The position numbers and the translations under genes were made by a program. DNA of 64,000 bases from Thermoguttaceae bacterium (lineage in GTDB: Bacteria; Planctomycetota; Planctomycetia; Pirellulales; Thermoguttaceae): NCBI GenBank assembly GCA_040766885.1, contig JAXGPP010000008.1:373659-437658 (forward strand). The letters are read 5' to 3'. The notes beneath the pieces are model-generated. The model saw nothing but the letters and a program-made list of their open reading frames with translations. It ran no database searches and had not been told where the DNA came from. Below are positions 7,375-40,542 of the stretch, in pieces (the stretch's first letter is position 1; every line of letters starts with the position of its first letter).

Positions 7375-7422
7375 TTTTCGAAGCGTGCGGCCACCGCGAA
7401 ACGGCGGCGGTCGCACGCGAAG

Positions 7423-7494
7423 GGCGCTGGAGCCAGACGGCAAGGCAACCGCCTGCAAAGCGGTTTTACGCGGGTTCGACTCCCGCCTGCGCCT
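7423..7494 (+). tRNA. tRNA-Cys(GCA)
   Basis: Acceptor GGCGCTG/CTGCGCC (one mismatch). Anticodon stem ACCGC/GCGGT with loop CTGCAAA. T-arm GCGGG-TTCGACT-CCCGC. Confidence 0.65.
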
Positions 7495-8075: not shown

Positions 8076-8091
8076 CTATGTGAAGGAGGTC

Positions 8092-16591: not shown

Positions 16592-19005
16592 GCATCCGGA
16601 GAAACCCAATGCATTGGCGAGTGTTGACTATCGTCGCCGTAATGTCTGTCGCTCTCTGCGATAGGCCGCTGGTTCTGGCCGCGGCAGCCGATCCGGAGGG
16701 CAAGGTCGAAGTGATCCGCGACCGCTGGGGCATCCCGCACGTGTCTGCCGAGACCGACGCCGGGGCGATGTACGGCTTGGGCTACGCGGCGGCCGAAGAG
16801 CGGTCGTTCCAGATGTACTACAACCTGCGGATCATTCAAGGACGGCTGGCAGAGATCCTGGGAGACCGGCCCGCGGGGCGGGAGGATTCGCCTGTTGAAC
16901 ATGACCGCATGATGCGAACGTTCGGTTTCTATCGTGCCGCCAAAGTGGTTGCGGAGCGGCTCGACGCCGACACCCGGGCGATGCTCTCCGCGTATTCCGA
17001 CGGCGTCAATCGCTACATCGAAGAGCATCGCGACGCGCTGCACCCGATGTTCGAGATCATGGACTTGGAGCCGGAACCCTGGACGCCGGCCGACTGCATC
17101 GCAAGCTGGTGGCACCTGGGACAGTTCTTCGCCACCGACGGCACCCGGGAGTTGATCCAGTACCGCAACCGGCAACAGCCGGCTGCCGCGGCTCGCGGCG
17201 GGCCCGGGGGGCGCGGAGCAGTGGCCCCACCAAAGCCGCTGCCTACCTGGTACGACGACGAGGCCGCGGTTGTCCAGCGCGCCGACGTGTCCGACGAGTG
17301 GCTCGACCGGGTCAATGCCTTCTCCCGACAAGCTGGCTCCCAAGATGCCGCGGCCCGGTCGGCGGGGCCGCGGTTCAGCCACGCCTGGGTCGTGGGCAAG
17401 GCAAAGACGAGCACCGGTTCTGCCGTGCTGGTGAGCGATCCGCAGACCACGGTCTGGGCGCCTTCGCTGTTTCACGAGTTCCATGTTTGCGGCAAGACGT
17501 TCAACGCCCGCGGCGTGGGCGTGCCCGGCTCGCCTGCGCTGCTCATCGGTTTCAGTCGCCACTTCGCCTGGGGCGCCACGGCACTCGGAGCCGACCAGGC
17601 CGACCTCTTCCGGCTCACGACCGATGCCGACCACCCAAACCAGTACCTGCTCGACGGGCAGTGGCAGCCGATGGAAGTGATCCGCGAGACGATTCAAGTT
17701 AAGGATGGCCGGCCGGTTGAGCTGGCGATCCGCGAGACGGTCTTCGGCCCGGTTGTCACGCCGTTCGCCTTCGCCGCGCTCGGCGATCCCGAAGTAGCCC
17801 TGCGCCGCGTGCCTGTCTGCCAGACCGACCGCGAGACGATCCAGGCTGCGCTTGGCATGATGCGAGCCCAGAGTCTCGACGACTTCACCCGGGCCATCGC
17901 CGCCTGGCAGTTCCCCAGTCTGAATCTGGTATTCGGCGACCGCGAGGGCAACATCGGTTACTGGCTCCTTGCCGCGATACCCGTTCGCTCGCCCCTGGAT
18001 CGCGAGGCCGGCACGGCGACGACCGACGGCAGCACTTCCGAGAGTGCGTGGCGGAGCTTCGTGCCGCACGATCTCCTGCCGCACGTTGTCAACCCGGGCC
18101 GCGGCTGGATCGCCAGCGCCAATCATCGTGCGATCGGCTCGTTCTATCCGGTAACGCTGGGACTAAGCACCGGCAGCATGGGGCATACGGTCCGCTCGTG
18201 GCGGCTCTACGAGCGCCTGTCGGCACGCGAGTCGTTCACGCCGGAAGAGGTTCTCGACATCCATTTCGACTGCGTCAATCCGGCACGGCGGCACCTCGTT
18301 CAAATGGGTCTTGCGCTCCGCGGCCAGTCCGACCGCCGTCTGTCGCCCGATGCCGCCAAAGCGCTGGAACGCCTGGAGGCATGGCATGCGGCGGGAGCAC
18401 GATCCGATCTGAACCAGCCCGGTGCGGCATTGGCCGGCGAGATCCCCACGATGTTCCGCTTCGTGACCACGCCTCTGGCCGAACGCTACGGCGGCGGAGA
18501 ATCGGGGCTCGTGCGGTTCCTGCGCAACCTGGAAGACCGGCAAGCTCGCGACCCGAAGTCCGAAATCACGGCCGAAGAGGCAGCCTTCATCGACCTCTGC
18601 CTGTCGGGCGCATGGAGATCGGCCCAGGCGAAGTTTGGCGCCGACCCGGCGGCGTGGGACGAAACGGCTCGCCGGCAGGTTGGCCAGCGTCGTCTGGAGT
18701 ATTTCGGCAGCCTTGACGGATTCGGCTCGCTCGCCCCGGCCCACGATGTCGCCATGCCGGCGCTGGAGTGCGTGGACGGCGGAACGATCCGCTCGCAGGC
18801 GGCGCAGTCCTACACGCAGTATGTGCCGCTGGACGATGTTGACCGAGCGCTCAGCCTGCTGCCGCCCGGTCATTCGGATCGGCCCAACGATCCACATTGG
18901 ACCAGCACGATGGAAACGTGGGCCGCCGGCCAACTGCACCCGGCGCCCCTCTCCCGCGAGGCGGTCGAACGTATCGCCGGCAGCCGGATCGAGTTGGAGC
19001 GGTAG
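16588..19005 (+). CDS. Penicillin amidase / acyl-homoserine-lactone acylase family (Ntn-hydrolase, S45)
   Basis: ORF of 805 aa with a signal peptide. The family signature is VIRDRWGIPHVSAETDAGAMYGLGYAAAEERSFQM. The size matches the alpha/beta precursor. Confidence 0.8.
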   Translation: MSIRRNPMHWRVLTIVAVMSVALCDRPLVLAAAADPEGKVEVIRDRWGIPHVSAETDAGAMYGLGYAAAEERSFQMYYNLRIIQGRLAEILGDRPAGREDSPVEHDRMMRTFGFYRAAKVVAERLDADTRAMLSAYSDGVNRYIEEHRDALHPMFEIMDLEPEPWTPADCIASWWHLGQFFATDGTRELIQYRNRQQPAAAARGGPGGRGAVAPPKPLPTWYDDEAAVVQRADVSDEWLDRVNAFSRQAGSQDAAARSAGPRFSHAWVVGKAKTSTGSAVLVSDPQTTVWAPSLFHEFHVCGKTFNARGVGVPGSPALLIGFSRHFAWGATALGADQADLFRLTTDADHPNQYLLDGQWQPMEVIRETIQVKDGRPVELAIRETVFGPVVTPFAFAALGDPEVALRRVPVCQTDRETIQAALGMMRAQSLDDFTRAIAAWQFPSLNLVFGDREGNIGYWLLAAIPVRSPLDREAGTATTDGSTSESAWRSFVPHDLLPHVVNPGRGWIASANHRAIGSFYPVTLGLSTGSMGHTVRSWRLYERLSARESFTPEEVLDIHFDCVNPARRHLVQMGLALRGQSDRRLSPDAAKALERLEAWHAAGARSDLNQPGAALAGEIPTMFRFVTTPLAERYGGGESGLVRFLRNLEDRQARDPKSEITAEEAAFIDLCLSGAWRSAQAKFGADPAAWDETARRQVGQRRLEYFGSLDGFGSLAPAHDVAMPALECVDGGTIRSQAAQSYTQYVPLDDVDRALSLLPPGHSDRPNDPHWTSTMETWAAGQLHPAPLSREAVERIAGSRIELER

Positions 19006-19134
19006 TCGAGCCCCATCGGCGGACAATCATGTGAACCATGAAGGCATCGAGCACGTCTACTACGAGTCGGAGGAATCAACGTGAGTGCGGGAGCATTCTG
19101 AACTTGAAGGCCAGGGCAGTCATCGTGGAAGGAC

Positions 19135-19869
19135 GTGATGGAAACGCGTGAAACCAGTCAAGTACACCAGTGGCCTGCATGGCAATGGAACGAGATTCAG
19201 CAGGTCGGCACCGACTATGCGGATGTCGCGGAAGTCGAGCGCTACGAGCAGCGGATGGGAGAATTCCGCAATCTGCCGGCCGAGGATGCCGCTATTCTCG
19301 ATCGACTCTCTTTGCCTGCCGGATCGCACATTCTGGAGATCGGTACCGGGACGGGGCATTTTGCCCGCGCGGCGGCACGCGCCGGTTATCGCGTCACGGC
19401 CCTGGACGTCTCGCCGGCCATGCTGCGATACGCCGCAGATCGCGCGAAGGCCGACCGACTGGCCGGCATCGAATTCTGCCACGCCGGGTTTCTCACCTTC
19501 ACCGCCGCGCCGGCCACGTTCGATGCGGCCGTCTCGGTCGCCGTGCTGCACCATCTGCCCGACCTGTGGAAGGCCGCGGCACTCGGCAACATCCACCGCG
19601 CCTTGAAGCCTGGAGGCCTGTTTCTCTTGTGCGACGTGGTCTTCTCGACGCAGCACGGCGATCCGTGCTCGCAATTCGAAGCCTTTATCGACGCCGTGCC
19701 CCAATCCATGCGTGACGGGGCGATCGGCCATATTGCACGGGAATACAGCACGCTGGATTGGATCATGGAAGGCTTGCTCACTCGCGCCGGCTTCACGATC
19801 GAGCGCATGGTGGACTCTCAAGCTCCGCTCGTTCAGTACCAGTGCAAGGTCGCAGGCCAGTTTGCGTGA
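19135..19869 (+). CDS. Class I SAM-dependent methyltransferase
   Basis: Motif I ILEIGTGTGHFARAAARAGYRVTALDVSPAML, and post-I LFLLCDVVF. Confidence 0.75.
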   Translation: MMETRETSQVHQWPAWQWNEIQQVGTDYADVAEVERYEQRMGEFRNLPAEDAAILDRLSLPAGSHILEIGTGTGHFARAAARAGYRVTALDVSPAMLRYAADRAKADRLAGIEFCHAGFLTFTAAPATFDAAVSVAVLHHLPDLWKAAALGNIHRALKPGGLFLLCDVVFSTQHGDPCSQFEAFIDAVPQSMRDGAIGHIAREYSTLDWIMEGLLTRAGFTIERMVDSQAPLVQYQCKVAGQFA

Positions 19870-19905
19870 CGGGACGTGCCGTGAGCCGTTACGGCAAGGA
19901 GACCG

Positions 19906-20541
19906 TTGCAGCCCCAGGGGTTGCCGGGAGGAATGATGGACGATTCGGTCAACGTGATTCAACGGGCACAGCATCGTCGGCAGACGGCCGAGGCCATTCT
20001 GCGAGACCTGGACCTGATGAGTCGATGGCGGCAATTCGGCCGGCCGGTCCTGGTAGGCGCGTTGTCGTTCGATCTGGCGGTCGCCCCCGATATCGACATG
20101 GAAGTCTACTGCCCCGAGCTCAAGATTGAACACGGGTTTGAGGTTCTCCGCGAATGCGCGCTGAACGCCCGCGTCACGTCCGCCTTGTTCCTCAACGCCC
20201 TGAACACTCCCGACCAGGCCCTGTATTGGCAACTGAAGTGTCGCGGCGACGATGGCGCGGAGTGGAAGATCGACATGTGGTCCGCGCCCGAGGATTATCC
20301 GCTTCCTCGCGGTGAGCACTTTGTCGGGCCGATGCAGCAGGCCCTGACGCCGGAAACCCGCATGGCGATTCTGACCCTGAAGGAAGCCCGGGCGGCGGGC
20401 GAGTTGCCAGGATTCCTTTCCATCGATCTCTACCGCGCGGTCATTGACGACGGCGTCCGCACCACCGACCAGTGGCGCCAGTGGCAGCAAACCCACGAGA
20501 CGGGTGTGTTGACCGCCTGGAAGCCGGCCCCTGTGGCATAG
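19906..20541 (+). CDS. Nucleotidyltransferase-fold protein (minimal NTase-like); function unknown
   Basis: GALSFDLAVAPDIDMEVYC resembles the GS-x(n)-D-x-D NTase core. The start is uncertain; 19933 is an alternative. Confidence 0.4.
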   Translation: MQPQGLPGGMMDDSVNVIQRAQHRRQTAEAILRDLDLMSRWRQFGRPVLVGALSFDLAVAPDIDMEVYCPELKIEHGFEVLRECALNARVTSALFLNALNTPDQALYWQLKCRGDDGAEWKIDMWSAPEDYPLPRGEHFVGPMQQALTPETRMAILTLKEARAAGELPGFLSIDLYRAVIDDGVRTTDQWRQWQQTHETGVLTAWKPAPVA

Positions 20542-20582
20542 CCGCTGACACGCATGCAGGAACCAACTCGGTCACCTTTTTC

Positions 20583-20900
20583 GGCCCTCGGCCCGGTGGC
20601 ACTGGCGCAGCCAGTGCTCTTCCCGTCCGTCTCTTGCAGCCAAGAACTGGCAACAACGCGTCCGCGAGGAGCGAAACCGTTCCAGGGGGCTTTCTCCTAG
20701 TATGATCGGGTGACACTGGCGAAGCCAGTGCTCTTCACGTGCGTCTCTTGCAGCCAAGAATTGCCGGAAACACGTCCGCGAAGATCGAAACCGTTCCAGG
20801 GAACTTTATCCTAGTATGATCTGGTGCCACTGGCGAAGCCAGTGCTCTTCCCATGCGTCTCTTGCAGCAAGAATTGCCGGAAATGTCTCCGCGTAGTCTA
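20583..20900. repeat. ~120-bp tandem repeat, 2.7 copies, each with an internal 7-bp hairpin
   Basis: Unit: GGTGnCACTGGCGmAGCCAGTGCTCTTCnCGTnCGTCTCTTGCAGCCAAGAAyTGsC...CGTCCGCGA.G..CGAAACCGTTCCAGGG..CTTT.TCCTAGTATGATC. Copies start at about 20583, 20707 and 20827. The hairpin is CACTGGC-gca-GCCAGTG. Confidence 0.8.
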
Positions 20901-21667
20901 GTCCTTTCCGCCAGGGACGGCATGAAGGGCCGAAACAGATCTCCCTCAGTTCCGGCTGCCATGAAACAGCCGGGTGTCCAAGACGACCCTCCACTCTCCC
21001 CCCAAAACATTCAACTCCGGCGGCTGCCACCTTTGTCGTCCCCGATAGGGCTGAATACTGCCGCTTAGCGGCAACTGCATGATTAGCCGGGTGTGCAGCG
21101 GAGCGCACGCCGCCACCCATCCCCATCGGCCTTGCCCGCCTCCGCTCATCCCTCTCCCAGCCGCGCACGCGGCGGCAGCCAATAGCCCACGGCGTAAGCC
21201 GTGGGACCCCGGCCCCGAAAGACGTTTTCTTCCCAAGCCCCATCAGGGGCGACAGCCTACACCGCCGAGCCGAGAACGCGCCGCGTGCCATGTCCTCGGC
21301 TCCGCCGTAGACATGCAGGAACCGCCGCGACCAACTCGCCGCGGAGGCTTTCAGAATCGACCTCCAACTCGCCGCCAGTCCGCTTGGGCAAGAGGAACAG
21401 AACCTTGCGCCAGGCCGTCGCGAAGGCCGCCGCCGTGACGGGGAAGTCTACTTCCGCATGGTTCGCGTTCTCCAGGTAGACGTACTGCCATCCCCGTTCG
21501 TGATCCCCCGAGTGTCTTACACCGGTGTAATAGCCCGTCAAGAGAGCCCCGGGCGTGTTCTGCCGCCGCGTTGGGCGGCATAGCACGCCGGCCCCGTGGG
21601 GCGTTGCTCCGCAACTGTTATCGTAGCCGTGACTTGTGCGGGCACGGACGAGAAGTCCTGGGAGTGT

Positions 21668-21700
21668 TCTGCCGCTCGGTCCGGCGGCAGAACACCCCGC
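21668..21700. promoter_or_regulatory. 12-bp perfect palindrome in a ~1-kb GC-rich ORF-less region, with repeated GCATAGCACGC and GTGTTCTGCCGC words
   Basis: GTGTTCTGCCGC-tcggtccg-GCGGCAGAACAC. The flanking repeats are gtgttctgccgccgcgttgggcggcatagcacgcc and cgcatagcacgctggcc. Confidence 0.4.
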
Positions 21701-21944
21701 CAAGTACAGGAGGCCTTCCGACGGGTAGTGAGGTCACAGGTGGGCTGCGTGTTCTACGCACCGCATAGCACGCTGGCCCACCTTGGGCGACGGGGCGCAA
21801 CTACTTGACTGGTGGGGATTTCAGAGTGAGAATGCGGGCCGTGGTATGGGTGCGATATGTTGCCGGAATCGCCGCGATAAAGAATGACCACGGTTCGCCG
21901 CCGGCGGCAGAATTACACAGTTATGTGCCCGAGGAAGCGTCAGC

Positions 21945-22397
21945 ATGTCCGACAACTGGATCGCGCTCGTGCCGGATGATCCGCGATTCGTTCCCGACGC
22001 GGCGAAACAGCGCAGGGCGCGTGATCGTCTGGCCGAGATTGCTCCTGATGCGGACGAAATCGAGATCAAGGTTTCTGAGAAAGTCGAGTTCTTCGATTGC
22101 GGTGCGAACTTGGAGCGCATTTGCTGTCCATCATGCGGCGCGGAGATTCCGGTCGATTGGTGGCAAGACCGAATGGATGAGGATTACGCCGACGGCTTTA
22201 AGCTGGCGTCCTATGCCACCCCGTGCTGCGGCAAGGAATCAACATTGCATGCACTTGTTTATGAATGGCCACAGGGCTTCGGCCGCTTCGCGCTCGATGC
22301 AATGAATCCCAACATTGGCAAACTATCCGACAAATACAAGCGCGAGTTCGAGAAAATCCTTGGCACAAAGTTGCGGGTCATCTATCAGCACATTTGA
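21945..22397 (+). CDS. Hypothetical small Cys-rich (zinc-ribbon-like) protein
   Basis: 150 aa. Cys motifs CCPSCGAE and TPCCGKE. No family assignable. Confidence 0.45.
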   Translation: MSDNWIALVPDDPRFVPDAAKQRRARDRLAEIAPDADEIEIKVSEKVEFFDCGANLERICCPSCGAEIPVDWWQDRMDEDYADGFKLASYATPCCGKESTLHALVYEWPQGFGRFALDAMNPNIGKLSDKYKREFEKILGTKLRVIYQHI

Positions 22398-22594
22398 CTT
22401 CCGAACACAACCAGCGGCTGAAGCTGACCCGGGCCGCCATCCTGGTTTCCGAAATTCAACGTTCTTGCGGGCGGCCCCGGCAGCTTAGCCGCATCGTTCG
22501 GCTCACCCCTGCTCGCTGCAACGATACGCTGGCGCACGCAAGTAGCGTTGGGGTGTTTAACGATCTGGTCAACGTCGACAGACGGGCTGCCTGG

Positions 22595-23020
22595 TCAGAA
22601 CGCTGCCTCCCAAATCCCTTGCCGGCCCGGCATCGACACCAGCTCGTCGAGCGCTTGCGCGTCTTCCAGGAGCCAGCACACTGGGCCGCTGGCCAGCGGA
22701 TGGGCCAGCCGCTCGTCGGGCCACAACTCGCCGGAGCCCTTACGGACGCAGTCGACCAGCTCCACCGTTCCGACGATCGCCGATCGTGGGACGTCGTCGG
22801 GAACCTTCACGCCCAGGCGTGCCAACTCGGCCCAGGCCCACTCGCCCTCGGCCGGATTGCCGCGCCCCGCGTGAATCGCAAGCCGCCCCGGTACTTGACC
22901 GGCCAGGCGCGGCACTGCACCGGCTTGTGACCGTACACCACCGCCCAGCCGCAGGCCGGATGCGGCGCAGGCGTTTTCACCGTGGCACTCCGACACTGCA
23001 AACCATCGCTCGCCGCCTGA
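22595..23020 (-). CDS. Hypothetical protein with an ASCH/PUA-like C-terminal region (start uncertain)
   Basis: The C-terminal ~100 aa read AIHAGRGNPAEGEWAWAELARLGVKVPDDVPRSAIVGTVELVDCV ... GPVCWLLEDAQALDELVSMPGRQGIWE. The upstream part of the listed 214-aa ORF is low-complexity. Confidence 0.35.
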   Translation of the reverse strand, partial: SGGERWFAVSECHGENACAASGLRLGGGVRSQAGAVPRLAGQVPGRLAIHAGRGNPAEGEWAWAELARLGVKVPDDVPRSAIVGTVELVDCVRKGSGELWPDERLAHPLASGPVCWLLEDAQALDELVSMPGRQGIWEAAF

Positions 23021-24375
23021 ATCCTCTCCCGAAATGCCCGAGGATTTCCTGTTGACATTTAGGCCACGCATCATGTATATCCGTATACTTACGAGCGCCG
23101 GGGTCGCGACACACGCGCGCCGGCATCTGAAGAGCCCCTCGCCGGGCCCGCGCTCAACCTGCGCGCCCGGCCCCCAATAATTCACCCCGAGATGAAAACA
23201 CCTACGATTCACGGAGCGACTCACCCATGTCCACTTCACCTCTTGCCTGCACCCGGCACGCGTCTCCCGCTGCCATCCCTGCCGGTTACAACTCCCCTCC
23301 CCGCAACCCTTTACAGCCGTCTAGAACCGCGCACACCTCTAGAGACTTCAACACTCGACCCAAAGGTGGCAGAAAACTTACGTCCGCGTCCCAGGTGCGA
23401 AAACCCTTTTCCGCAAGCACTTACCGCGACGCCCCTCGCCCAAGTCAACCGAAACACCCACGCATATTGTTTCGCTTCGATGGTACAAAGTACCATCCGC
23501 CGGCTGCCGAGATCGATCGGGTCGCCTCCCGGACCGGGCGCTGCCCGGCGCCACCGCCGTTCTCCGCGAAGTGCAGCGGGCTCGCTGGCGGCTCGAATGG
23601 GGGAACCTCGACCCGCGGTCGCTTCCGTTGGTCGCAGTCCTGCTGCCAAGGCCGCTCAGAGCCGATCCGATGCCGCAGCAGTGGTGCGCATGACGTCCGA
23701 TCTGCTCCGCCACTACCGCGAGGCCCGGTTGGCCGACTTCGCCAAAGCTCAGAATCCGGTGCACAAGCGGTGCAAAAGGCGGTGCAGCGACCTTCCGCGG
23801 CCATTCGAGAGCAACCGCAAGAAACGACGCAAGCCCTTGGATTTACAAGGGCTTGTGCTGATTCCTGCGAGTTGTCGCTGATCCCTGCCAGATCATCAGC
23901 GGAGAGGACAGGACTCGAATCGCTTGCCGTAACGACATGCAGCCAAGCAATTTACAGGATAGCGGCAAGCCGGGCGCTGCTGCCGGCGCTGCTATCGACG
24001 CACCAATCCCCACCGTAGACGACGAACTGGGCGAGGTGATAGCGGCGTGGGCGGGGCTGCCCTTGAGCATCCGGCAGGCGGTGCTGCGACTAGTGCGAGA
24101 GGCAAGCGGAAGTAAGGCATCGCAAGGGGACGTAAGGGGGTGAGTCTCACGGTAAGGAACAGCACCCGGCAGCAAGGGCACGACCGCTAACGCACAACCG
24201 AAGCGACAACGCCCCTTGCCCTACGGGCAGGCAACCCCGCCCCCGGCAGCCCCCCAATCGCAAGCCTGTATCATCTACCTTGACTGAGGGGATTTTTTTT
24301 ACCCCAAAAACCGTGAAGATAGGCAACCTGTTTACAACCCAATCACAACCCAGAGGCAATGGAAAGGCCAAAACG

Positions 24376-24660
24376 ATGCAGCCTGTAACGACAACGGAAG
24401 AGTACGAAACTTTCGCCGTGGTGGTGCGGAACGAGGTGAAGTCGCTGCGTGATTCAAAAGGCCGTGCCGTCCGCTTCGCCGAGAGGCTGAATCAGATGTA
24501 TCGGGAATATGGTGATTTGGAACGGGCATTCGTGCGGAGGGTGAGAGTCAAATACACAGTCACAAAGGTTTTGGAGTTTTGTGACGCTGACGGCTTGGAG
24601 TGGAGCGACGACGAGGCCCCGGCGGGCAGTGAAGCCGGGGATCACGTTGAAGGGGCCTGA
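24376..24660 (+). CDS. Hypothetical protein (island cargo)
   Basis: 94 aa from MQPVTTTEEYETFAVVVRNEVKSLRDSKGRAV. No family. Confidence 0.4.
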   Translation: MQPVTTTEEYETFAVVVRNEVKSLRDSKGRAVRFAERLNQMYREYGDLERAFVRRVRVKYTVTKVLEFCDADGLEWSDDEAPAGSEAGDHVEGA

Positions 24661-24888
24661 CGCATCGTCAGACGCGATCGGGCCCGAGGGGGCGGCTGCT
24701 GGGCCATGGTAGCCGGCGGGACGCTCCTGGGGCCAGCGTTGACGATCGGACGGGCAAGGGGATAGGCTACGACGATCAAACAACCCCGCGGTGGTAGCTC
24801 CCCGCGGCGGGCTGGCCCGGCCGGCGCGAAGTATCTTGCCTTTCGCTTCGCGCTGGCTGGCCGGCATTGAAAGAAAGGCAACTCTCCC

Positions 24889-25773
24889 ATGCGAGTGGAT
24901 CAAAGCCCGATCTTCACCGAGGACGGCACGGCCCTGTACCGATTCGCCTACCTTGCGGCGAAGGAATTGCTTGCGACCGTCCAGGAATGGCGGAACACAA
25001 TCGAGGGCAGTCGGCCGGCTGACTACTCCCGGGCGAGAGATGAACTTAAGGCTCTCTTGCGTCACCTTGAGTCATGGCTGTGCCCGCCAGTGCGGGACGG
25101 GGAACCGATCGACCCCCGCGATACGCCCGATTGGCGAGACCTGCCCGGCGTCTCGCAACTGAACCTCCGGGAGGAGTTTGTTCAAACTCGCAATGCTGTT
25201 TGCAGCGGATTGGGATTCTCGGCACTCTGCGCGCATGAGGTTGTCTGCGAGCTTGCGTTTGAAACGATCAGGGCCGTGACCATGTTGGCTGCCACAAAGG
25301 ATCGGGCAACCCTCGATTTCCTGCTGGGCCCGAAGTCTCCCCTCCGATTGAGCGGCGGTCTCGGGCCGATCGACCAGAAGGACGCGGAGCGGCTCGAAGC
25401 TGAGTGCTTGCAGGAAGCGGAGGAGGCTTGGCGGGCATCTCGGCCGGGCAAAAAGACGAAGGAGACGGCGCCCGTGGCATCCAAAGAAGCATCCCCGGTG
25501 GCCGCGAGTGTATGCGTGAAACTGTACGGGCTGAATGATTCGCCGATTGTCAACGGCAAGAAGAAACGCCGCCTGACTAGAGCGCGGTACGATCTCGTGT
25601 TGGCACTTGTTGAGGCCGGCGAAAACGGCCTGACAGGAGATGAACTAGTCAAAGCGAGCGGGCACGGCGATTCCGTGAAGACTATGAAGCGGCTGGCCGA
25701 CAGCGATACCGACTGGGAAGCCGTGCTGGTCTTCCCAGTCACAAACTACAGCGGCGGCTATCGCATCAAGTAG
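24889..25773 (+). CDS. Hypothetical protein (island cargo), possibly with a C-terminal winged-helix
   Basis: 294 aa. The C-terminus reads RARYDLVLALVEAGENGLTGDELVKASGHGDSVKTMKRLA. Confidence 0.45.
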   Translation: MRVDQSPIFTEDGTALYRFAYLAAKELLATVQEWRNTIEGSRPADYSRARDELKALLRHLESWLCPPVRDGEPIDPRDTPDWRDLPGVSQLNLREEFVQTRNAVCSGLGFSALCAHEVVCELAFETIRAVTMLAATKDRATLDFLLGPKSPLRLSGGLGPIDQKDAERLEAECLQEAEEAWRASRPGKKTKETAPVASKEASPVAASVCVKLYGLNDSPIVNGKKKRRLTRARYDLVLALVEAGENGLTGDELVKASGHGDSVKTMKRLADSDTDWEAVLVFPVTNYSGGYRIK

Positions 25774-25891
25774 GCGGCGAGCCTCGACCAGTCCCCACGT
25801 CTGCCCACCTTTTCCCCACCTTTTCGCCCACGTCTGCCCACCGCCGCGCGCCGTAAGTTACCTCCAGACATTTGCGACCCGTTGTCTGGAG

Positions 25892-26095
25892 GTGCTTATG
25901 AGTGACATGTTGACCGCGAAGGAACTGGCCGCGCGACTGCGCGTGACGGTGCCCACCGTACACGCGTGGCATCGACGCGGTTGGATTCCCTGTCTGCGAG
26001 CGGGCCAGCGGCCGGTGTTGTTCGACCTGCCGGCCGTGGAGTCAGCATTGCGAGAGCGCGCCGAAAGGCGGCAGGGGGCGGCCGATGCAAGCTGA
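25892..26095 (+). CDS. AlpA/MerR-like HTH excisionase-family protein
   Basis: LTAKELAARLRVTVPTVHAWHRRGWIPCLRAGQRPVLFDLPAVESAL. Confidence 0.65.
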   Translation: MLMSDMLTAKELAARLRVTVPTVHAWHRRGWIPCLRAGQRPVLFDLPAVESALRERAERRQGAADAS

Positions 26096-26294
26096 CCCCA
26101 CCCACACAATCAAGCTCCTGCTTTCGGCGCGCGAAGCGGCGAAAGCCCTATCCATTTGCGAGAAATCGCTATGGTCGGCGACTGCCCCGCGCGGTCCGGT
26201 CCCCTGCGTCCGCATCGGTGCGCGGGTGCTCTACGCGGTATCCGATCTTGAGCGGTGGATTGATGGCGCGAAAGGAAACAGCGATGAGCGGTAA
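26085..26294 (+). CDS. Second AlpA-like HTH excisionase-family protein
   Basis: LLSAREAAKALSICEKSLWSATAPRGPVPCVRIGARVLYAVSDLERWI. Confidence 0.6.
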   Translation: MQADPTHTIKLLLSAREAAKALSICEKSLWSATAPRGPVPCVRIGARVLYAVSDLERWIDGAKGNSDER

Positions 26295-26484
26295 GCTAAC
26301 GGCGATCATCCAGTCAGCCCATGCCACGGCGCGCGAGTGCGACGAGCGGGAAATTAGACGGCTCCTTTCCACCGACGCTGCGCTTTTGATGGGGGCGGCG
26401 ATTCTGGCCGACGCGATCGACCGCGCGGCTGAGCGAATTTCGGACGCGATCAAAACCAGCGGAGGGCGGCGCAATGGCAAATAA
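26284..26484 (+). CDS. Hypothetical small protein
   Basis: 66 aa, MSGKLTAIIQSAHATARECDEREIRRLL..., translationally coupled with its neighbours. Confidence 0.35.
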   Translation: MSGKLTAIIQSAHATARECDEREIRRLLSTDAALLMGAAILADAIDRAAERISDAIKTSGGRRNGK

Positions 26485-28615
26485 TGAGACACTGCTGGCC
26501 GATGATCGGCCCGCCGATATTCTCCCGCATCATTGGACGAAACTACTAGGGTCTGACCTGACCGCGGAAATCGTACGGGCGGCGGGCATTCGCTCCGAAA
26601 CGGAGGCCCCGAGGGCTTCCGCCATGCTGGGCGTCCCGCGATTCTCCCCGCGATGCCTGCCGGCGCTAGTGATCCCTTACCGGGATGCGGCCGGGCAGAA
26701 CGGCTATTGTCGGCTTCGCCCTGATCATCCCCGGACCAGCGGCGGGAAGCCCGTCAAGTACGAGAGCCCGCGCGGCCGGCCCAACGAAGTCTACATCCCG
26801 CCGGGCGTGCATCCGGTTCTGCCCGACCCGCAACGCGAGTTGCTTATTACCGAGGGCGAGTTGAAGGCCCTGGCAGCGGTGCGAAATGGTTTCCCGTGCA
26901 TCGGGCTGGTGGGTGTGTTCGGCTGGAAGCCGAAGAAGCGGGAAACGCTACTGGCCGCGCTGGAGCAAATTGCGTGGCGCGGCCGGCTGGTATACATCGT
27001 TTTTGACAATGACGGCGACGGCTTGAAGCCCGAGGTAGCGGACGCGGTAAGCCGGCTGGCCGCGCAGTTGGTGAACCGTGGGGCGGTGGTTCGCGTGGTG
27101 CGACTACCGGCCGGCGAGCCTGGCGCCGACGGCAAACAGACCAAGATGGGCCTGGACGATTTTTTGGTATCGTGCCGAGCCCGCGGTTTGGATCCGGCCG
27201 GCGAATTGCGGGCCCTGCTGGACGCGGCGGAAGACCCCGAGCCGGTGGAGGGCGGGCGGGCAAAGGAACCGGCAAGCAGCTGTGACGCGGTGTTGTCGGC
27301 AAGCGACCTATTGGCCAAGACTACACGGGATGGTGTGCCCAAGCTGCGATTTTGGCGCGGCGACTGGTGGTATTGGCAGGCCGGCGCTTACCGCGAAATG
27401 CCGGCTTCCGAGGTTCGGGGTATTGTGATTGAACATCTGGATAAGTCCTACTACAAAATCACCACCGGGACGACAACCAACGTACTCGATGCGCTGAAGG
27501 CGAAGGCTCGGCTGTCCCATCGCGTTGTGCCCCCGGCATGGATCGGCGGCGATCCGCCCGAGGGTTGGAGGCCGGGGGATGTGCTTGTGGCCAAGAACGG
27601 GGTGATTCACCTACCTACGTTGACGGCCGGCGGGGATGACTACATCCGGTTTGCCACCCCGCGGTTATTCACGACCTGCGCTGTCGATTACGAGTTTCGC
27701 ATCGACGCCCCGGAGCCGGCGGCTTGGCTAGGGTTCCTCGACCAACTATGGGGCCGTGACCCCGAGAGCATAGAAACGCTGCAAGATTGGTTCGGGCTTT
27801 GCTTGACCCCTGATACCAGCTTCCAAAAGGTCTGCCTACTCATTGGCCCCACGCGATGCGGCAAGGGAACTATTAGCCGTGTGCTGCGGGCAATGATTGG
27901 CCCCGAGAACGTATGCGGTCCGACCCTGGCGTCTCTCGGCGGCAACTTCGGGCTTGAGCCCCTGCTGGGCAAATCGTTGGCGGTGATTAGTGACGCACGG
28001 CTGGGACATCGCACGGACCAATCGATTGTCACCGAACGGCTGCTGTCTATTTCGGGCGAGGATGCGCTTACGGTAGACCGCAAAAATCGGGAGTCGGTGA
28101 CCTGCAAACTCGATTCTCGGTTGATGATTCTCAGCAACGAGCTTCCCCGATTGTCCGATGGGAGCGGGGCGCTGGCGGGGCGAATGATCATTCTCCGGTT
28201 TACGGAGAGTTTTTACGGGCGTGAGGATCGGGAGCTAACCGACAAACTGCTTGCCGAGTTGCCCGGCATTTTGTTGTGGGCGATTGCCGGCTGGCAACGA
28301 CTGCGGGAGCGGGACCACTTGATTGAGCCGGCGAGTGCGAGGCAACTGGCCGGCGATCTGGCCGACTTGGCTTCCCCAATTTCAGCTTTCGTGCGGGACC
28401 GCTGCATCGTCTCGCCCGGCTACCGCGTGCCCACCGATGACCTCTATGCAGCGTGGCGGCGGTGGTGCGAGGCTAACGGGCGGCGGGAGCCGGGAACGGT
28501 TCAGACGTTCGGCCGCGATCTGCTGGCAGCGGTACCAGGTTTGGAAGGTACTCGGCCGCGCGACGGCGACGCGCGGTACAGAGCCTATGAGGGCATCGGG
28601 CTGGTGGCTGGATAG
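26474..28615 (+). CDS. Phage/plasmid primase-helicase (P4/D5 family: N-terminal primase-like, C-terminal SF3 NTPase)
   Basis: 713 aa. Acidic DNDGDG motif. Walker A LLIGPTRCGKGTISRV and Walker B MILSNELP. Confidence 0.75.
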   Translation: MANNETLLADDRPADILPHHWTKLLGSDLTAEIVRAAGIRSETEAPRASAMLGVPRFSPRCLPALVIPYRDAAGQNGYCRLRPDHPRTSGGKPVKYESPRGRPNEVYIPPGVHPVLPDPQRELLITEGELKALAAVRNGFPCIGLVGVFGWKPKKRETLLAALEQIAWRGRLVYIVFDNDGDGLKPEVADAVSRLAAQLVNRGAVVRVVRLPAGEPGADGKQTKMGLDDFLVSCRARGLDPAGELRALLDAAEDPEPVEGGRAKEPASSCDAVLSASDLLAKTTRDGVPKLRFWRGDWWYWQAGAYREMPASEVRGIVIEHLDKSYYKITTGTTTNVLDALKAKARLSHRVVPPAWIGGDPPEGWRPGDVLVAKNGVIHLPTLTAGGDDYIRFATPRLFTTCAVDYEFRIDAPEPAAWLGFLDQLWGRDPESIETLQDWFGLCLTPDTSFQKVCLLIGPTRCGKGTISRVLRAMIGPENVCGPTLASLGGNFGLEPLLGKSLAVISDARLGHRTDQSIVTERLLSISGEDALTVDRKNRESVTCKLDSRLMILSNELPRLSDGSGALAGRMIILRFTESFYGREDRELTDKLLAELPGILLWAIAGWQRLRERDHLIEPASARQLAGDLADLASPISAFVRDRCIVSPGYRVPTDDLYAAWRRWCEANGRREPGTVQTFGRDLLAAVPGLEGTRPRDGDARYRAYEGIGLVAG

Positions 28616-28623
28616 GCATTGGT

Positions 28624-28741
28624 CCGCGATGGTCCGCGGACCACTTATCTATATGGCAACTTTGGTAGTAAGAAATAAAATTCCCGCGAACATATGTGTG
28701 TAAAGAGAAGAGTGGACCGCGGACCACTGCGGACCAACTGG
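28624..28741. promoter_or_regulatory. Pair of perfect palindromes TGGTCCGCGGACCA flanking a short AT-rich stretch downstream of the primase; putative operator or origin
   Basis: Sequence: gatggtccgcggaccacttatctatatggcaactttggtagtaagaaataaaattcccgcgaacatatgtgtgtaaagagaagagtggaccgcggaccactgcggacc. Confidence 0.45.
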
Positions 28742-29117
28742 CCGCCCCCGTGGCTGCCTGCCGGTCCGGCAACTGCCCCCGAGCCGGCGAAAATCGAGCC
28801 CGTGGCGGCGGTTTCCGCCCCGATTCTCCCGCCCGCCCCGAGCGATCCGCCCCGGCTATCCCTGCCCATTCCGGCGGCCGGCGGCGGGCGACCTGCCCCG
28901 CAGTGGCCGGCGGCGCTGGCTGACTGGGCGTTGCTTCTCACCCCTGACGATCTCCCCGAGCGGCTCCGGCTGCGTCCGGGAACCGTGGTGATTGACCGGC
29001 GGCGATTCCTGGCATGGCTGCGGGCTGACATCCTCCGGGGACCAGAGGGGCCGCGGGCCATGTACGGGGCGATCCAGTCCGACTTGCGTTGTCTGCGCAA
29101 GGCTTTGATTCCAGACC

Positions 29118-30251
29118 GTGAGGAACCCTATGTTGAATGAACCAGTAATTCAAACCTCGAAAGACGGCCGGCGCATGGTTTCGGTCCTTAACCCGCCCAT
29201 GCGATCGACGGGCCCGAGACAGTACCAGCCCTGGCGGTTTACTGATCTTCAGCCCGGCCGGTGGCGAGTCTACGCAACCTGGCTGCCCGATCCGGCGTAT
29301 GCCACCAATGCGCCGTTTGCGATCATCGACGGCCGCGAGCGCCTTGGCGTGGTCCGGGTCAACCAGCGATTGGCGCCGAGCGATCTTGTCGCCACGGCTG
29401 CCGACGCGGCACCTTGGGCCCTCCTGGGCGCGTTCGACATCTTGAGTGGGACGCTGCAAGTCATCCTGACGACCAGCGAAGCCGATGGCGTGGTCAACGG
29501 CGAGGCTGTCATGATCGCTTACGACGGCCCGATTCTCACGGCAAGCCGCCCTCTCCTGGCTGCCTCCCCGCTCGATAGCCCGGGCACCATTGCGGGCGAG
29601 TGGCAGAAGCTCCCCCCGCCCTGTGAGTTGCGCAACCTCGACGTGAGTTGGCATATCGTGCGGGATCCTTACGACCCTTTGCAGGATCTCGACATCACGA
29701 TCCGCTGTGCGACATGCGGCGAGGATTGCGGGCCGTCCGACAACGCCGAATGCCAGTGCGACGATGGTATCACCCAGCGGCGGTTGCCGAAAAACCTGAC
29801 GCTGACGCTGACCAACAAGCTGTTCTGTAGCCGGCTCGACGGCTCGTATCCAATGACCTACCACACCGACCCCGAGCCGCCGACACCGGGGTCAAGCTTC
29901 TTTGAGTTTTGGGATTCGCCAATCTTCCAATGCCACTTCAACACCGGGTTCTTCTTGCGTCTGTTCTGCGCCGAAGCCGGGGTCCAGAGTTTCATCCTGC
30001 AAGCGATTGTCGCCCCCGGCGCGACGCTTCATACGATGTACTTCGCCAATGAGTGCAACGGGGCATTCACGCAAGACCAGACCAGCGATTCCGCCTGGGC
30101 CTGCGCGGCGAGTACCTGTGACCCCCTGCGAATCGTTTTCCCCGACCTGTTGGAAGAGGGCGTTTCGGGCGGTTTTGCCAACAACTGTTGCCAAGAGGAT
30201 CACGAGGGGGACGACCGAGAGCCTCGTCTAGCCGTGGAGATTACCGAATGA
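29118..30251 (+). CDS. Hypothetical Cys-rich protein (island cargo); no recognisable family
   Basis: 377 aa. Multiple Cys clusters: RCATCGEDCGPSDNAECQCDDG and FANNCCQEDHEGDD. Confidence 0.5.
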   Translation: MRNPMLNEPVIQTSKDGRRMVSVLNPPMRSTGPRQYQPWRFTDLQPGRWRVYATWLPDPAYATNAPFAIIDGRERLGVVRVNQRLAPSDLVATAADAAPWALLGAFDILSGTLQVILTTSEADGVVNGEAVMIAYDGPILTASRPLLAASPLDSPGTIAGEWQKLPPPCELRNLDVSWHIVRDPYDPLQDLDITIRCATCGEDCGPSDNAECQCDDGITQRRLPKNLTLTLTNKLFCSRLDGSYPMTYHTDPEPPTPGSSFFEFWDSPIFQCHFNTGFFLRLFCAEAGVQSFILQAIVAPGATLHTMYFANECNGAFTQDQTSDSAWACAASTCDPLRIVFPDLLEEGVSGGFANNCCQEDHEGDDREPRLAVEITE

Positions 30252-30772
30252 ACATGGGCCGTTGTCGTGATTGTCCGGTTCCACCGGAGGGTGAGCGGTT
30301 TTGGTGCCAGCGACATGGGGTCTGGAAGACCGCGCATCACCGGGAGCTATGCCGCACGAAGCCGAGCTACTTTGCCGCGTGGGAACGCGGCGATGGGCCG
30401 GGGCAGCCCGGCTGGCCGATCCGCCCGAAGTGGGCGTCCATTGGCTGGCCGGAGTTGCTGTACGCCTATCTGCGGCGTGGTGACGAGTGGATCGAATTTC
30501 GGATGGAGTTTCGGGCCGGCTGGTTCAGCGGTGCGGTGGACGCGGCCGGCAAACGGCTGGCCGTCTGGCTGTCCACCGAGGAACCCAAGCTAGTGTACGC
30601 GATTGGCGCCGAGCCGACCGACGATCCTCCCGCCGATGCCCCGACGATCTTGCTACCGCTGGCCGCGGACGGGCAAACGTGGAATCCCGAGGTTTCGTCG
30701 CTCTGGCCGGACCCTCCAATCCTCTGGGCGAGAGACGTTGGCGGATTCGGCGGGGTGATTGCGACGGTCTGA
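30248..30772 (+). CDS. Hypothetical protein (island cargo)
   Basis: 174 aa from MNMGRCRDCPVPPEGERFWCQRHGVW. Overlaps the previous stop codon. Confidence 0.4.
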   Translation: MNMGRCRDCPVPPEGERFWCQRHGVWKTAHHRELCRTKPSYFAAWERGDGPGQPGWPIRPKWASIGWPELLYAYLRRGDEWIEFRMEFRAGWFSGAVDAAGKRLAVWLSTEEPKLVYAIGAEPTDDPPADAPTILLPLAADGQTWNPEVSSLWPDPPILWARDVGGFGGVIATV

Positions 30773-30823
30773 AACGGACGATTCCCCCTGCGGTTGACAA
30801 TTGGACAAGTAACGGATAGGATA

Positions 30824-31045
30824 ATGTCGATGAGCAAAAAACCGCGACTACTCACCGAGCAACTGCGGCAAGCGATCCTCGATGCCGGGGAAACTCGCTA
30901 CGCGATCTGCAAGGCGACGGGTATCGGGCAGGACGTGTTGAGCCGATTTATGAGCGGCGAGCGCGGCCTGTCGAACCGCGTCATGGATCGGCTGGGCGAG
31001 TACCTTAAGTTGGAACTGGTGAGCCGGCGGCAGAAAGGCAGGTGA
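30824..31045 (+). CDS. Small HTH DNA-binding protein (phage regulatory/XRE-like)
   Basis: MSKKPRLLTEQLRQAILDAGETRYAICKATGIGQDVLSRFMSGERGLSNRVMDRLGEYL. Confidence 0.55.
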   Translation: MSMSKKPRLLTEQLRQAILDAGETRYAICKATGIGQDVLSRFMSGERGLSNRVMDRLGEYLKLELVSRRQKGR

Positions 31046-31049
31046 CACG

Positions 31050-32381
31050 ATGGCGAGCATTCTGGGACGCAACGGCCGCCGAAGCGTGCAATTCTACGGG
31101 CCCGACGGCGCCCGCAAGACGCTTTCGCTTGGCAAGGTTTCTCAGCGGCAGGCGGAAACCGTCCGGCTGAAAGTCGAATCCCTCCTGGCGTCGGCAATCA
31201 CGGGCTGCGCTCCAGACCGGGAAACGGCGGCTTGGCTGACCACGCTGGACGACGTGATGACTGACAAACTGGCGAGCGCTGGCTTGATTGCCCGGCGATC
31301 GTCGGCGACCCTGGGGGGCTTCCTTGCCGAGTACCTGACAAGCCGGATCGACGTGAAGCCGGCAACCCGGGAAGTTTGGTCGCAAGTCGAGCGAAACCTC
31401 AAAGAGCATTTCAGCGAAGGCCGGGCGCTGCGGACGATCACTCCCGGCGATGCGGAAGGCTTCCGGTTGTACTTGGTGGCCCAAGGACTAGCCCCGACCA
31501 CGGTTTCCAAGCGGCTGCAATTCGCCCGGCAATTCTTCCGCGCGGCGATGAAACACAAGCTGATCACCGAGAACCCGTTTGCCGAAGTGCGATCGAAGGC
31601 GGCGACGGATTCGGGCCGGCAGCGGTTCATCAGCCGGGACGACACGGCGAAGCTACTGGAAGCCTGCCCGTCCCTGGATTGGCGGCTGATCGTCGCCCTT
31701 GCCCGTTACGGCGGGCTGCGGTGCCCGAGCGAAGTCCTGTCGCTCCGCTGGCAGGACGTGGACGCGGCCCGCGGCCGGCTGACCGTGACGAGCCCCAAAA
31801 CCGAGCATCACCCGGGCAAGGATACGCGGGTCATTCCCCTGTTCCCCGAACTGCGGTCGATCCTCCAGGATGCTTTCGACGCGGCTCCTGACGGATCCGT
31901 GTACGTCGTCAACGAACGGTTCCGGCAATCGTCCCAAGGCAAGGCCGGCTGGAGGAACTGCAACCTCCGCACCAGCTTTGAGAAGATCATCCGGCGGGCC
32001 GGGCTGACCCCCTGGCCCCGGCTGTTCCACAACCTGCGATCCTCCCGCGAAACGGAACTGGTCCAGGCTTATCCCGTCCAGGTGGTCACGGCTTGGCTGG
32101 GCAACACCCCGGCGATCGCTTTGAAACACTACCTCCAGACAACGGATGAGCACTTCGCCCAAGCGTTGTCCGGCAGCGCGCTGCTGCCGGCGCTGCCGTA
32201 CCCGTCCGCAAACGTCACCCCGAGCGGAACATTGCCCGTCGTAACCTGTGGTAAGGCTTCGCAAGAAAACGAAACAACCCCTTGCGAAACAAGGGGTTGT
32301 ACTGAAACTTACGACCGTTTACCAAGCCTTACGAAAATCATCAGCGGAGAGGACAGGATTCGAACCTGCGGACCCCTTTGA
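31050..32381 (+). CDS. int: Tyrosine-type site-specific recombinase / phage integrase
   Basis: 443 aa. The catalytic region has RLIVALARYGGLRCPSEVLSLRWQDV, HNLRSSRETELVQ and AWLGNTPAIALKHYLQ (R..H..R..Y). The 3' end abuts tRNA-Ser. Confidence 0.85.
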   Translation: MASILGRNGRRSVQFYGPDGARKTLSLGKVSQRQAETVRLKVESLLASAITGCAPDRETAAWLTTLDDVMTDKLASAGLIARRSSATLGGFLAEYLTSRIDVKPATREVWSQVERNLKEHFSEGRALRTITPGDAEGFRLYLVAQGLAPTTVSKRLQFARQFFRAAMKHKLITENPFAEVRSKAATDSGRQRFISRDDTAKLLEACPSLDWRLIVALARYGGLRCPSEVLSLRWQDVDAARGRLTVTSPKTEHHPGKDTRVIPLFPELRSILQDAFDAAPDGSVYVVNERFRQSSQGKAGWRNCNLRTSFEKIIRRAGLTPWPRLFHNLRSSRETELVQAYPVQVVTAWLGNTPAIALKHYLQTTDEHFAQALSGSALLPALPYPSANVTPSGTLPVVTCGKASQENETTPCETRGCTETYDRLPSLTKIISGEDRIRTCGPL

Positions 32382-32443
32382 GGAGGTCACGGGTTTAGCA
32401 AACCCGCGCTTTCGACCACTCAGCCACCTCTCCAAGTGCGTGC
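32355..32443 (-). tRNA. tRNA-Ser(GCT), class II; integration target
   Basis: The reverse complement reads GGAGAGGTGGCTGAGTGGTCGAAAGCGCGGGTTTGCTAAACCCGTGACCTCCTCAAAGGGGTCCGCAGGTTCGAATCCTGTCCTCTCCG. Acceptor GGAGAGG/CCTCTCC, anticodon loop TTGCTAA, long variable arm. Confidence 0.8.
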
Positions 32444-40335: not shown

Positions 40336-40542
40336 AGGCGCGCCATCGGGGGTTTCCTTATTCTATTCTCCGTTCAGGTGGGGTCAATTGAACGCCAAAT
40401 CGCGTGTATGCGGCGAATGCTGCGGAAACGAGCCCCGACGAGGCGTCCTAGCTGTGTTGACTACCGGCAGCCGGACCATTGCGATTTATGCCCTCAGGAG
40501 CCAGAATGGCAGAGCCGTATTGTTACTGCGGGAGGCGATGCA

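Follow-up and report, generated by a model that had tools for sequence, protein, structure and literature searches.

A stretch of 64,000 nt from contig JAXGPP010000008.1 of a Thermoguttaceae bacterium (hereafter the window, to which all coordinates refer unless another contig is named) was found to carry an integrated mobile element of 8.4 kb, which extends over positions 23892–32364 at a serine tRNA gene of its planctomycete (Pirellulales-type) host. The core of the phage-type attachment site (attP) is located inside the integrase gene (int) of the element itself, a point overlooked in the preliminary description of this DNA. Taken as a whole, the observations are very probably best explained by an integrated plasmid-like element with attP inside int, from which the integrase tail is detached on integration. 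The element carries its own replication gene, which combines a Toprim-like domain with a helicase of the P4/D5 type. A tRNA-targeting integrative element is ordinary as such; attP within int together with a conserved detachable tail, spread over a whole phylum, is less so.

The ends of the element are marked by the 28-mer ATCATCAGCGGAGAGGACAGGAYTCGAA, present in exactly two copies in the window, which are identical in 27 of 28 positions. This direct repeat with its single C/T mismatch had been noticed before, and it proved robust: none of 100 dinucleotide-preserving shuffles contained it, and a 21-mer search of the window with up to three mismatches returned neither a third core copy nor a far left attachment site (attL) of an older element. 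The cores and the tRNA gene are as follows.

23892–23919, no strand assigned: attL core, the displaced last 21 nt of tRNA-Ser plus 7 nt (ATCATCA), with C at position 23.
32337–32364, no strand assigned: core of the right attachment site (attR), with T at position 23.
32344–32433, minus strand: tRNA-Ser(GCT), intact, its 3′ end regenerated by the element; found by ARAGORN and Rfam.

Rfam placed the tRNA at 32345–32433 with 61 bits and had no match inside the element. The tRNA and its strand had been named correctly in the preliminary description, and its coordinates (32355–32443) were about 10 nt off; the repeat takes in the final 21 nt of the tRNA and 7 nt on its 3′ side, not 8 nt as had been counted. 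The intact tRNA-Ser(GCT) and the copy of its 3′ fragment at the far end mark the entry of the element, in which a tyrosine integrase recombined the attP core with the 3′ end of the tRNA. That an integrative element flanked by attL and attR is present at tRNA-Ser, as proposed earlier, is borne out by these two features and, as described below, by a related contig without the element (L082), a sister element at another tRNA (L084) and circular relatives.

The integrase gene reads into the right core, and its missing 3′ end is found next to the left one.

31050–32381, plus strand: integrase in its integrated, truncated form, 443 aa, with Phage_integrase and Phage_int_SAM_5 domains.
23920–24143, plus strand: int(C) stump, 74 codons and a stop in the int frame 3′ of the core, with an ATG of its own at 23937.

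In its layout the integrase resembles lambda Int, with three domains of which the N-terminal one is a beta-sheet domain of the arm-binding type; the catalytic set R…K…HxxR…W…Y is present. The catalytic tyrosine, Y361 (32130–32132), sits 69 codons before the core, and every invariant catalytic column of the family alignment precedes the core. The int stop codon (32379–32381) is located 37 nt inside the tRNA gene, of which the antisense strand is read; the int open reading frame (ORF) therefore crosses the attachment core, and its last 15 codons come from the core and the antisense tRNA (…KIISGEDRIRTCGPL, then the stop). When the right arm was joined to the left arm in silico, with the predicted circle junction …CTTACGAAA-core-TCGCTTGCC…, the int frame stayed open for 74 more codons by way of the ORF 23937–24143, resulting in a predicted circular-form integrase of 512 aa that ends with …DELGEVIAAWAGLPLSIRQAVLRLVREASGSKASQGDVRG and contains the tail motif AWPxLPxxIRxxIL. 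The stump is intact in the window, where the int frame is free of stops and the conserved helix-turn-helix (HTH)-like motif DELGEVIAAWAGLPLSIRQAVLRLVREAS (about 24021–24110), a two-helix unit of 30 residues, is complete. As attP lies inside int, integration swaps the C-terminal 74 residues of the integrase: the last 74 codons are shifted to the far end of the element, and the 443-aa product retains all catalytic residues.

The complete attP is contained within the 3′ 400 nt of the int ORF, on the 3′ side of the catalytic Tyr codon, in the order P-arm repeat, hairpin, core and P′-arm repeat.

32178–32196, no strand assigned: P arm-type repeat GCGCTGC-N5-GCGCTGC, inside the coding part of int, 159 nt ahead of the core.
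32274–32300, minus strand: intrinsic-terminator-like hairpin, 12-bp stem and tail TTCGTTTTCT, 43–69 nt past the tRNA 3′ end.
23974–23992, no strand assigned: P′ arm-type repeat GCGCTGC-N5-GCGCTGC, identical to the 19-mer at 32178–32196.

The 19-mer of the two arms, GCGCTGCTGCCGGCGCTGC, has no further occurrence in the 64 kb. The same attP layout was common to four elements, those of the window, L001, L009 and L037, in which a bipartite direct repeat, made up of two 7-mers 12 nt apart, is situated about 130–165 nt before the core and again about 65–80 nt past the core start. Arm repeats read in different frames account for the peptides 'AVQNPVQ' and 'GAESGA' that recur in the family. The hairpin lies between the P-arm repeat and the core, antisense to the int coding sequence that contains it, and we read it as a putative terminator supplied by the element for the regenerated tRNA. 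Stems of 9–14 bp, differing in sequence and mutually complementary, were identified at the same place in the tRNA-Ser(GCT) elements L007, L008, L009, L028, L029 and L050, and similar hairpins are visible in L078–L083. The hairpin was rejected as a family-wide feature, since no more than 14 of 56 loci had it and these were essentially the tRNA-Ser(GCT) subgroup; the terminator is therefore claimed for that subgroup alone.

Besides the position of attP, the preliminary description had missed that the element entered a non-virgin site, which was the old attR scar of another element of the same family.

23700–23891, plus strand: scar of the older element, frameshifted, the last approximately 65 codons of a same-family integrase (…LLRHY… then AVQKAVQRPSAAIREQPQETTQALGFTRACADSCE…), abutting the left core.
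23830–23855, minus strand: terminator-like hairpin of the scar, 10-bp stem and tail CGTCGTTTCT, 3′ of the displaced tRNA fragment when read along the tRNA strand.

The scar peptide is 52% identical (28/54 aa) to the tail of the full-length relative P0028 and 59% identical (26/44 aa) to that of P0060 (E 3e-10), and the scar hairpin is homologous in both position and sequence to the hairpin at 32274–32300. The family hidden Markov model (HMM), run over the six frames of 19000–24300, matched only the 23700–23891 stretch, and no more of the older integrase was found left of 23700 by this model or by tblastn over the same range. A homologous integrase scar is located beside tRNA-Ser in L082. Integration into the old attR scar explains why the identity of the two cores extends 7 nt beyond the tRNA, and ATCATCA is conserved across the attR sites of the tRNA-Ser(GCT) subgroup.

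More than 3,000 homologues of the integrase were obtained, for which the named sources were all Planctomycetota, mainly Pirellulales; the closest in the species-representative genome collection was 64% identical. Most of the homologues have C-termini that are tRNA-antisense peptides, e.g. SGEDRIRTCG, DGEGFEPPV and AGTGFEPATSRL. Of the 54 genome loci that have an adjacent antisense tRNA, 45 have their int stop inside the tRNA 3′ end or farther on, and nine tRNA species were used at these loci, among them Ser-TGA, Ser-GCT, Ser-GGA, Val, Met, Gln, Ala and Arg. For eight integrated elements both att copies were in hand, with cores derived from Ser-GCT, Ser-TGA, Val-TAC and Val-CAC in different reading phases. 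The reconstructed int ORF ran for more than 50 codons further, into a related amphipathic motif, in every one of the eight, and the motif was present in the int frame each time and in none of the other 16 frames. The tail was contiguous with the integrase in four natural genes (P0028, P0065, P0113 and L046), two of which, P0028 and P0065, lie on the circular contigs L001 and L002 of 8.8 and 11.2 kb, which are without a tRNA. Identity within the motif was 0.48, 0.60 and 0.38 for the first, second and third codon position, respectively, and as third positions are the least conserved, the motif is selected as protein. The length of the ORF past the core was dropped as evidence, control frames being often equally open in GC-rich DNA, and reliance was therefore placed on motif and frame agreement only.

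A search with the tail profile returned 1,616 proteins, of which the best 120 listed were all stand-alone ORFs of 47–107 aa annotated as 'hypothetical proteins'. Many of the tail ORFs inspected start with core-encoded residues (GEDRIRT, AGTGLE, GDTGLEP…), and are therefore severed integrase 3′ ends at attL. For L003–L005, which are insertion sequence-ridden or larger islands, no distal repeat or tail motif was found within 10 kb, and these loci are thus uninformative.

Three further loci with integrases of this family were recorded. In P0111 (530 aa) the ORF continues in frame into an HTH_17 domain of the excisionase type instead of the tail. The L046 gene (10001–11461) encodes a full-length integrase of 487 aa with the tail motif on a 23-kb contig of a metagenome-assembled genome (MAG), with no tRNA nearby, and may represent a larger episome or an element in its attP form. 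In L005 (13229–17310) a Cas9-Cas1 locus is situated directly on the host side of a tRNA-Ser that is occupied by a related integrase.

The full-length relative P0028 was modelled with AlphaFold from an input alignment of integrases only, the tail stumps having been misaligned to an internal Trp in a mixed MAFFT alignment. The predicted local distance difference test (pLDDT) score exceeded 90 over most of residues 1–380, with a confident N-terminal three-stranded sheet and helix as well as core-binding and catalytic domains; the linker (residues 406–465) was predicted as disordered, and two C-terminal helices had pLDDT values of 83–86. Best PDB matches of the model were full-length lambda Int and Tn1549 Int, and the predicted structure agrees with an arm-binding, heterobivalent integrase.

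The closest parallel in layout is myxophage Mx8, in which attP is part of int and integration gives int a new 3′ end by which specificity is altered (PMC6070905). In the same account of its IntP and IntX forms, the core lies in the int ORF 3′ of the catalytic Tyr, the target is a tRNA, and the tail is replaced while the enzyme remains catalytically complete, as in the window (PMC6070905). Mx8 likewise has a small HTH/excisionase-type gene (uoi) directly 5′ of int, and in Mx8 Int (AF396866) the catalytic Tyr, a linker of about 60 aa, the core peptide 'STGLEPV' and a long tail follow in the same order. However, no significant similarity was detected between the two proteins: blastp gave an E-value of 0.03 over 151 residues of the generic tyrosine-recombinase core, the family HMM scored 0.2 bits, the tail HMM matched only an unrelated internal stretch, and the AWPxLPxxIR motif was absent. 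Mx8 is moreover a 49.5-kb tailed phage, in contrast to the capsid-less 8.4-kb element of another phylum. With the altered specificity of its prophage form of Int, Mx8 is the only experimental precedent for a change of the integrase along with its tail (PMC6070905).

In archaea, attP within int is known from SSV-type integrases (SSV1, pTN3, pT26-2), and reviews of archaeal recombinases have stated that the arrangement is confined to that domain (PMC7253208, PMC8371274). These 'suicidal' type I integrases resemble the planctomycete family in having a translated att site, in their integration at tRNA genes, after which a small plasmid- or virus-like element is flanked by int(N) on one side and int(C) on the other, in the use of different tRNA targets by close relatives, and in the scars that build up at tRNA genes (PMC7253208, PMC8371274). 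Unlike the archaeal split, which interrupts a part of the gene that is required for activity and leaves two inactive pseudogenes, the split in the window occurs 69 codons after the Tyr and leaves the catalytic domain complete; the presence of excisionase (Xis)-like genes in the element is a second difference.

Between the repeats, every convincing gene is encoded on the plus strand, and the main ORFs are all intact with a coding-type GC content at third codon positions (GC3). The gene list given in the preliminary description (integrase, 713-aa primase-helicase, two Xis-like HTH_17 proteins, an HTH gene and ORFans) was confirmed in full. Apart from int and attP, the element contains the following features.

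24376–24660, plus strand: small ORF, 94 aa, no family match, conserved in sister element L084 with a length of 84 aa.
24889–25773, plus strand: ORFan, 294 aa, with only two partial homologues in 5.8 billion proteins, one of them in L084.
25794–25893, no strand assigned: candidate operator or origin repeats 5′ of the Xis-like genes, function putative.
25892–26095, plus strand: first HTH_17 protein (AlpA/excisionase type), 67 aa; Pfam HTH_17 28 bits, phrog_66 'excisionase and transcriptional regulator'.
26085–26294, plus strand: second HTH_17 protein, 69 aa, the conserved one; Pfam HTH_17 29.5 bits.
26284–26484, plus strand: small ORF, 66 aa, conserved in L084, placed after the second Xis-like gene and before the primase.
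26474–28615, plus strand: replication protein, 713 aa, with an N-terminal Toprim-like DUF3854 and a D5/P4-type superfamily 3 (SF3) helicase domain (DUF5906, Pox_D5).
28620–28643, plus strand: terminator-like hairpin directly 3′ of the primase-helicase gene.
28694–29140, plus strand: ORF, 148 aa, its C-terminal half kept in the gene after the DUF3987 replication protein of L003.
29118–30251, plus strand: cargo protein, 377 aa, with a Golvesin_C-like domain in residues 37–140.
30794–31045, plus strand: HTH_31-like protein, 83 aa, Pfam 23 bits (below cut-off), ending 5 nt before the int start.

The repeats upstream of the Xis-like genes comprise a 16-nt exact direct repeat, CCCACGTCTGCCCACC, at 25794–25809 and 25827–25842, and an 11-nt inverted repeat at 25860–25870 and 25883–25893. 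The two HTH_17 ORFs overlap, and both score barely above the Pfam cut-off of 27 bits. The L084 gene at the position of the first is dissimilar, whereas the second has a closely similar counterpart in L084 and homologues in 29 related loci. The 713-aa protein was assigned to TIGR01613 'phage/plasmid primase, P4 family' with 154 bits against a cut-off of 108.7, and to the DNA primases of phrog_6088 (1.6e-68); homologues are encoded in L001 (42%) and L052 (53%). As ORFans we count the 94, 294, 148, 377 and possibly 194 aa products, for which PADLOC gave no defence match. The Golvesin_C-like domain of the 377-aa protein is known in tandem copies from giant proteins (1,000–7,800 aa), and the protein has a Cys-rich C-terminal half and one 80%-identical homologue. 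Homologues of the 83-aa HTH protein are located directly 5′ of int in 30 related loci, and the gene is thus part of a conserved integration module.

Sister elements with the same HTH-Int-attP module span 6–11 kb and encode DnaB/AAA_25, Prim-Pol with D5, DUF3987 or family A polymerase proteins, or other cargo. In the 6-kb sister element of L037 (3033–5191) DUF4041-T5orf172 and GYF_2-PspC proteins replace a recognisable replication gene. A common integration module combined with exchanged replication proteins is the pattern of small integrative plasmids, and 'integrative plasmid' is the description that fits the element best. No tycheposon with attP embedded in int has been described to our knowledge. 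Tycheposons and other small tRNA-integrating replicative islands are otherwise alike in size (a few kb), in having a tyrosine recombinase at a tRNA and a primase/helicase module, and in their variable cargo and reported lack of capsid and conjugation genes (bioRxiv 10.1101/2020.12.28.424599); they differ in host phylum and integrase family.

The preliminary description had instead placed the element among satellites of the P4 or phage-inducible chromosomal island (PICI) kind or, alternatively, among integrative mobilisable elements. As a phage satellite, it would be excised, would replicate itself and would be packaged in the capsids of some helper phage, which we regard as unlikely. The small size, the integrase at a tRNA, the AlpA-type HTH_17 proteins, the P4-family primase C-terminal domain above the curated cut-off and the co-directional genes are in line with a satellite, several ORFans could conceal hijacking functions, and the circular relatives come from bulk metagenomes in which a virion origin is possible. 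Those parts are generic, however, and the P4 replication protein is only matched at its C-terminal domain (TIGR01613), the N-terminal domain being DUF3854 and not the P4 alpha primase domain. None of the families psu, sid, delta and epsilon, nor capsid, portal or terminase families, were found in Pfam, PHROGs and NCBIfam scans, and no search for cos was made. The same three collections gave no domain match in any ORF for packaging, a relaxase, a coupling protein or type IV secretion system (T4SS), or an FtsK-like translocase. Hence the earlier statement that capsid, terminase and conjugation genes are missing stands, also after the PADLOC scan, and neither the satellite label nor that of a mobilisable element is supported. 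The sole packaging-type match was between the first Xis-like ORF and small-terminase phrog_57 (34 bits), a weak similarity confined to a 62-residue HTH. Furthermore, the sisters exchange their replication proteins and cargo for unrelated ones and can be as small as 6 kb, which is typical of plasmids and not of a helper-adapted lineage; a domain of giant multi-repeat proteins, and not a capsid-like family, makes up the largest ORFan, and no prophage is evident in the window.

A second alternative concerns the tail. The motif could belong to an independent small gene beside attP, the integrase proper ending before or at the core, and read-through in the circles would then be incidental. The ATG at 23937, the more than 1,600 database entries with their best 120 listed as stand-alone ORFs of 47–107 aa, the predicted disorder of the approximately 70-residue linker between catalytic domain and motif, and the constraint that arm repeats and terminator place on much of the linker at the DNA level would be accommodated by such a gene. 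Against this, the reading frame from catalytic domain to motif is uninterrupted by a stop in all four natural full-length genes, and frame agreement in eight of eight elements, with cores from four tRNAs in different phases, is expected by chance with a probability of about 1.5e-4. In addition, many of the inspected stand-alone ORFs start within the core-encoded peptide, at varying residues and without a conserved start, as is explained by a gene caller acting on a severed 3′ end. A separate tail gene is accordingly improbable, and the tail is taken as the detachable end of the integrase.

Evidence for insertion and mobility came from related contigs. A host gene (19906–20541) that is 11.8 kb away from tRNA-Ser in the window has an orthologue, 77% identical in nucleotides and 76% in amino acids, in the metagenome contig L082, where it is only about 0.6 kb from the tRNA-Ser core, with no element in between and only the int 3′ scar. 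L082, a single contig, thereby provides the comparison with an insert-free tRNA-Ser that the preliminary description had proposed. A planctomycete MAG contig, L084, contains the left half of a sister element at 77–80% nucleotide identity and with a matching gene order (84-aa ORF, homologue of the 294-aa ORFan, HTH_17, small ORF, primase). Its attL derives from a different tRNA fragment (GGGGCGACAGGATTCGAA) and is situated beside an unrelated beta-helix gene, so that, on the evidence of this one short contig, close relatives differ in tRNA target while the tail is retained. The stump peptide of L084 (1700–2260) reads …GATGFE…GELGEVITAWPHLPLEVRREVLRLV…. Terminal overlaps of 30 nt, together with the lack of a tRNA, identified L001 (8.8 kb) and L002 (11.2 kb) as circular k=31 assemblies. 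It is also of low probability that the element is an immobile relic, i.e. an old integration now fixed as a genomic island with genes kept by chance or domesticated: the decay of the neighbouring older element to a scar, the mismatch between the repeats and the failure of a 28-mer scan of metagenome contigs to find an excised or empty form of this copy are in line with a relic, but the main ORFs are intact with coding-type GC3, the repeats agree in 27 of 28 positions, the stump is in frame, stop-free and complete in its motif, a 77–80% identical sister occupies another tRNA, and the only syntenic relative found (L082) is without the element.

Several points nevertheless weigh against an integrated plasmid-like element with a detachable integrase tail. 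The element-free comparison consists of one 3.3-kb contig (L082) with 77% nucleotide identity in the host gene. Scanning metagenome contigs with the 28-mer returned six attR-type junctions, all of other elements, and no attP or empty attB of this copy. The linker is predicted to be disordered and is of low complexity, and its conservation is in part at the DNA level (arm repeats, terminator); openness of the ORF past the core does not discriminate in GC-rich DNA, and the tail ORF, having its own ATG, could be a separate small gene. The long form of the integrase could be tolerated rather than needed, and an effect of the tail on activity or directionality is pure inference.

The neighbourhood of the element showed additional features. 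In L082 (reverse complement, 2860–3160) the scar after tRNA-Ser comprises approximately 290 nt of int 3′ sequence, from just before the catalytic 'KHY', with arm repeats and terminator hairpin, and it may have been kept as the supplier of the tRNA terminator. Between the host gene and the scar of the window, 3.2 kb (20542–23700) contain no convincing ORF and are absent from L082; this region includes three 114-nt tandem repeats (20595–20936), a spaced repeat of 109 nt (at 21545 and 21654) and, on the minus strand, an Acido-Lenti-1 RNA motif (21159–21205, 42 bits, gathering score 37). Farther to the left, 28 tRNA genes are arrayed on the plus strand within 4.7 kb (2756–7495), to which Rfam adds one at 5004–5074, and ARAGORN called an odd 95-nt tRNA-Gly(ACC) at 4321–4415. 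An HNH endonuclease ORF (6252–6908) is located inside this array, directly after which a Ro60/TROVE-vWA gene follows (8080–9723), and a sigma-54 activator is encoded upstream (659–2599). The host region to the right includes a gene for a KaiC-family double-domain ATPase (40378–42306), and an Hsp70 gene is another neighbour in the window; neither the exact Hsp70 sequence nor that of the integrase matched a recorded entry.

With regard to mechanism, the full-length enzyme expressed from the circle would, by analogy, drive integration, after which the truncated chromosomal form would differ in activity or specificity, such that the integrated state is stable. Excision would depend on the Xis-like and HTH proteins and would rebuild the full-length int gene, and the element would then replicate as a small plasmid. 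From the analogy with Mx8 IntP/IntX we infer that the tail swap may be a built-in switch. In a tentative extension, which we hold to be possible and somewhat less probable than not, the elements make up a family of small integrative plasmids in Planctomycetota that is very large and as yet undescribed, with the complete attP in the int 3′ end and a reversibly detachable two-helix module that would serve as a directionality or commitment switch. In the literature searched no published description of this family was found, which is absence of evidence only. The severed stump might act in trans. Since the core is translated, a new tRNA target requires co-evolution of protein tail and site, and L084 may show such a change of target happening in a close sister.

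A layout previously known from one myxophage and from archaea is here common across a bacterial phylum. Mx8 is the single well-studied bacterial case of attP within int and is usually treated as a curiosity (PMC6070905); in the planctomycete elements the arrangement would be standard throughout a family of thousands, with a tail that is selected at the protein level and exists only in the episomal form. The family would be a natural model in which to study how a recombinase perceives its own integration state. More than 1,000 'hypothetical' ORFs of 50–100 aa in planctomycetes would be explained as severed integrase ends. The compact Int-attP cassette, with its defined tRNA target and built-in terminator, could aid the genetics of Planctomycetota, for which tools are scarce. 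If true, the detachable tail would be a bacterial counterpart of the self-splitting integrases of archaea.

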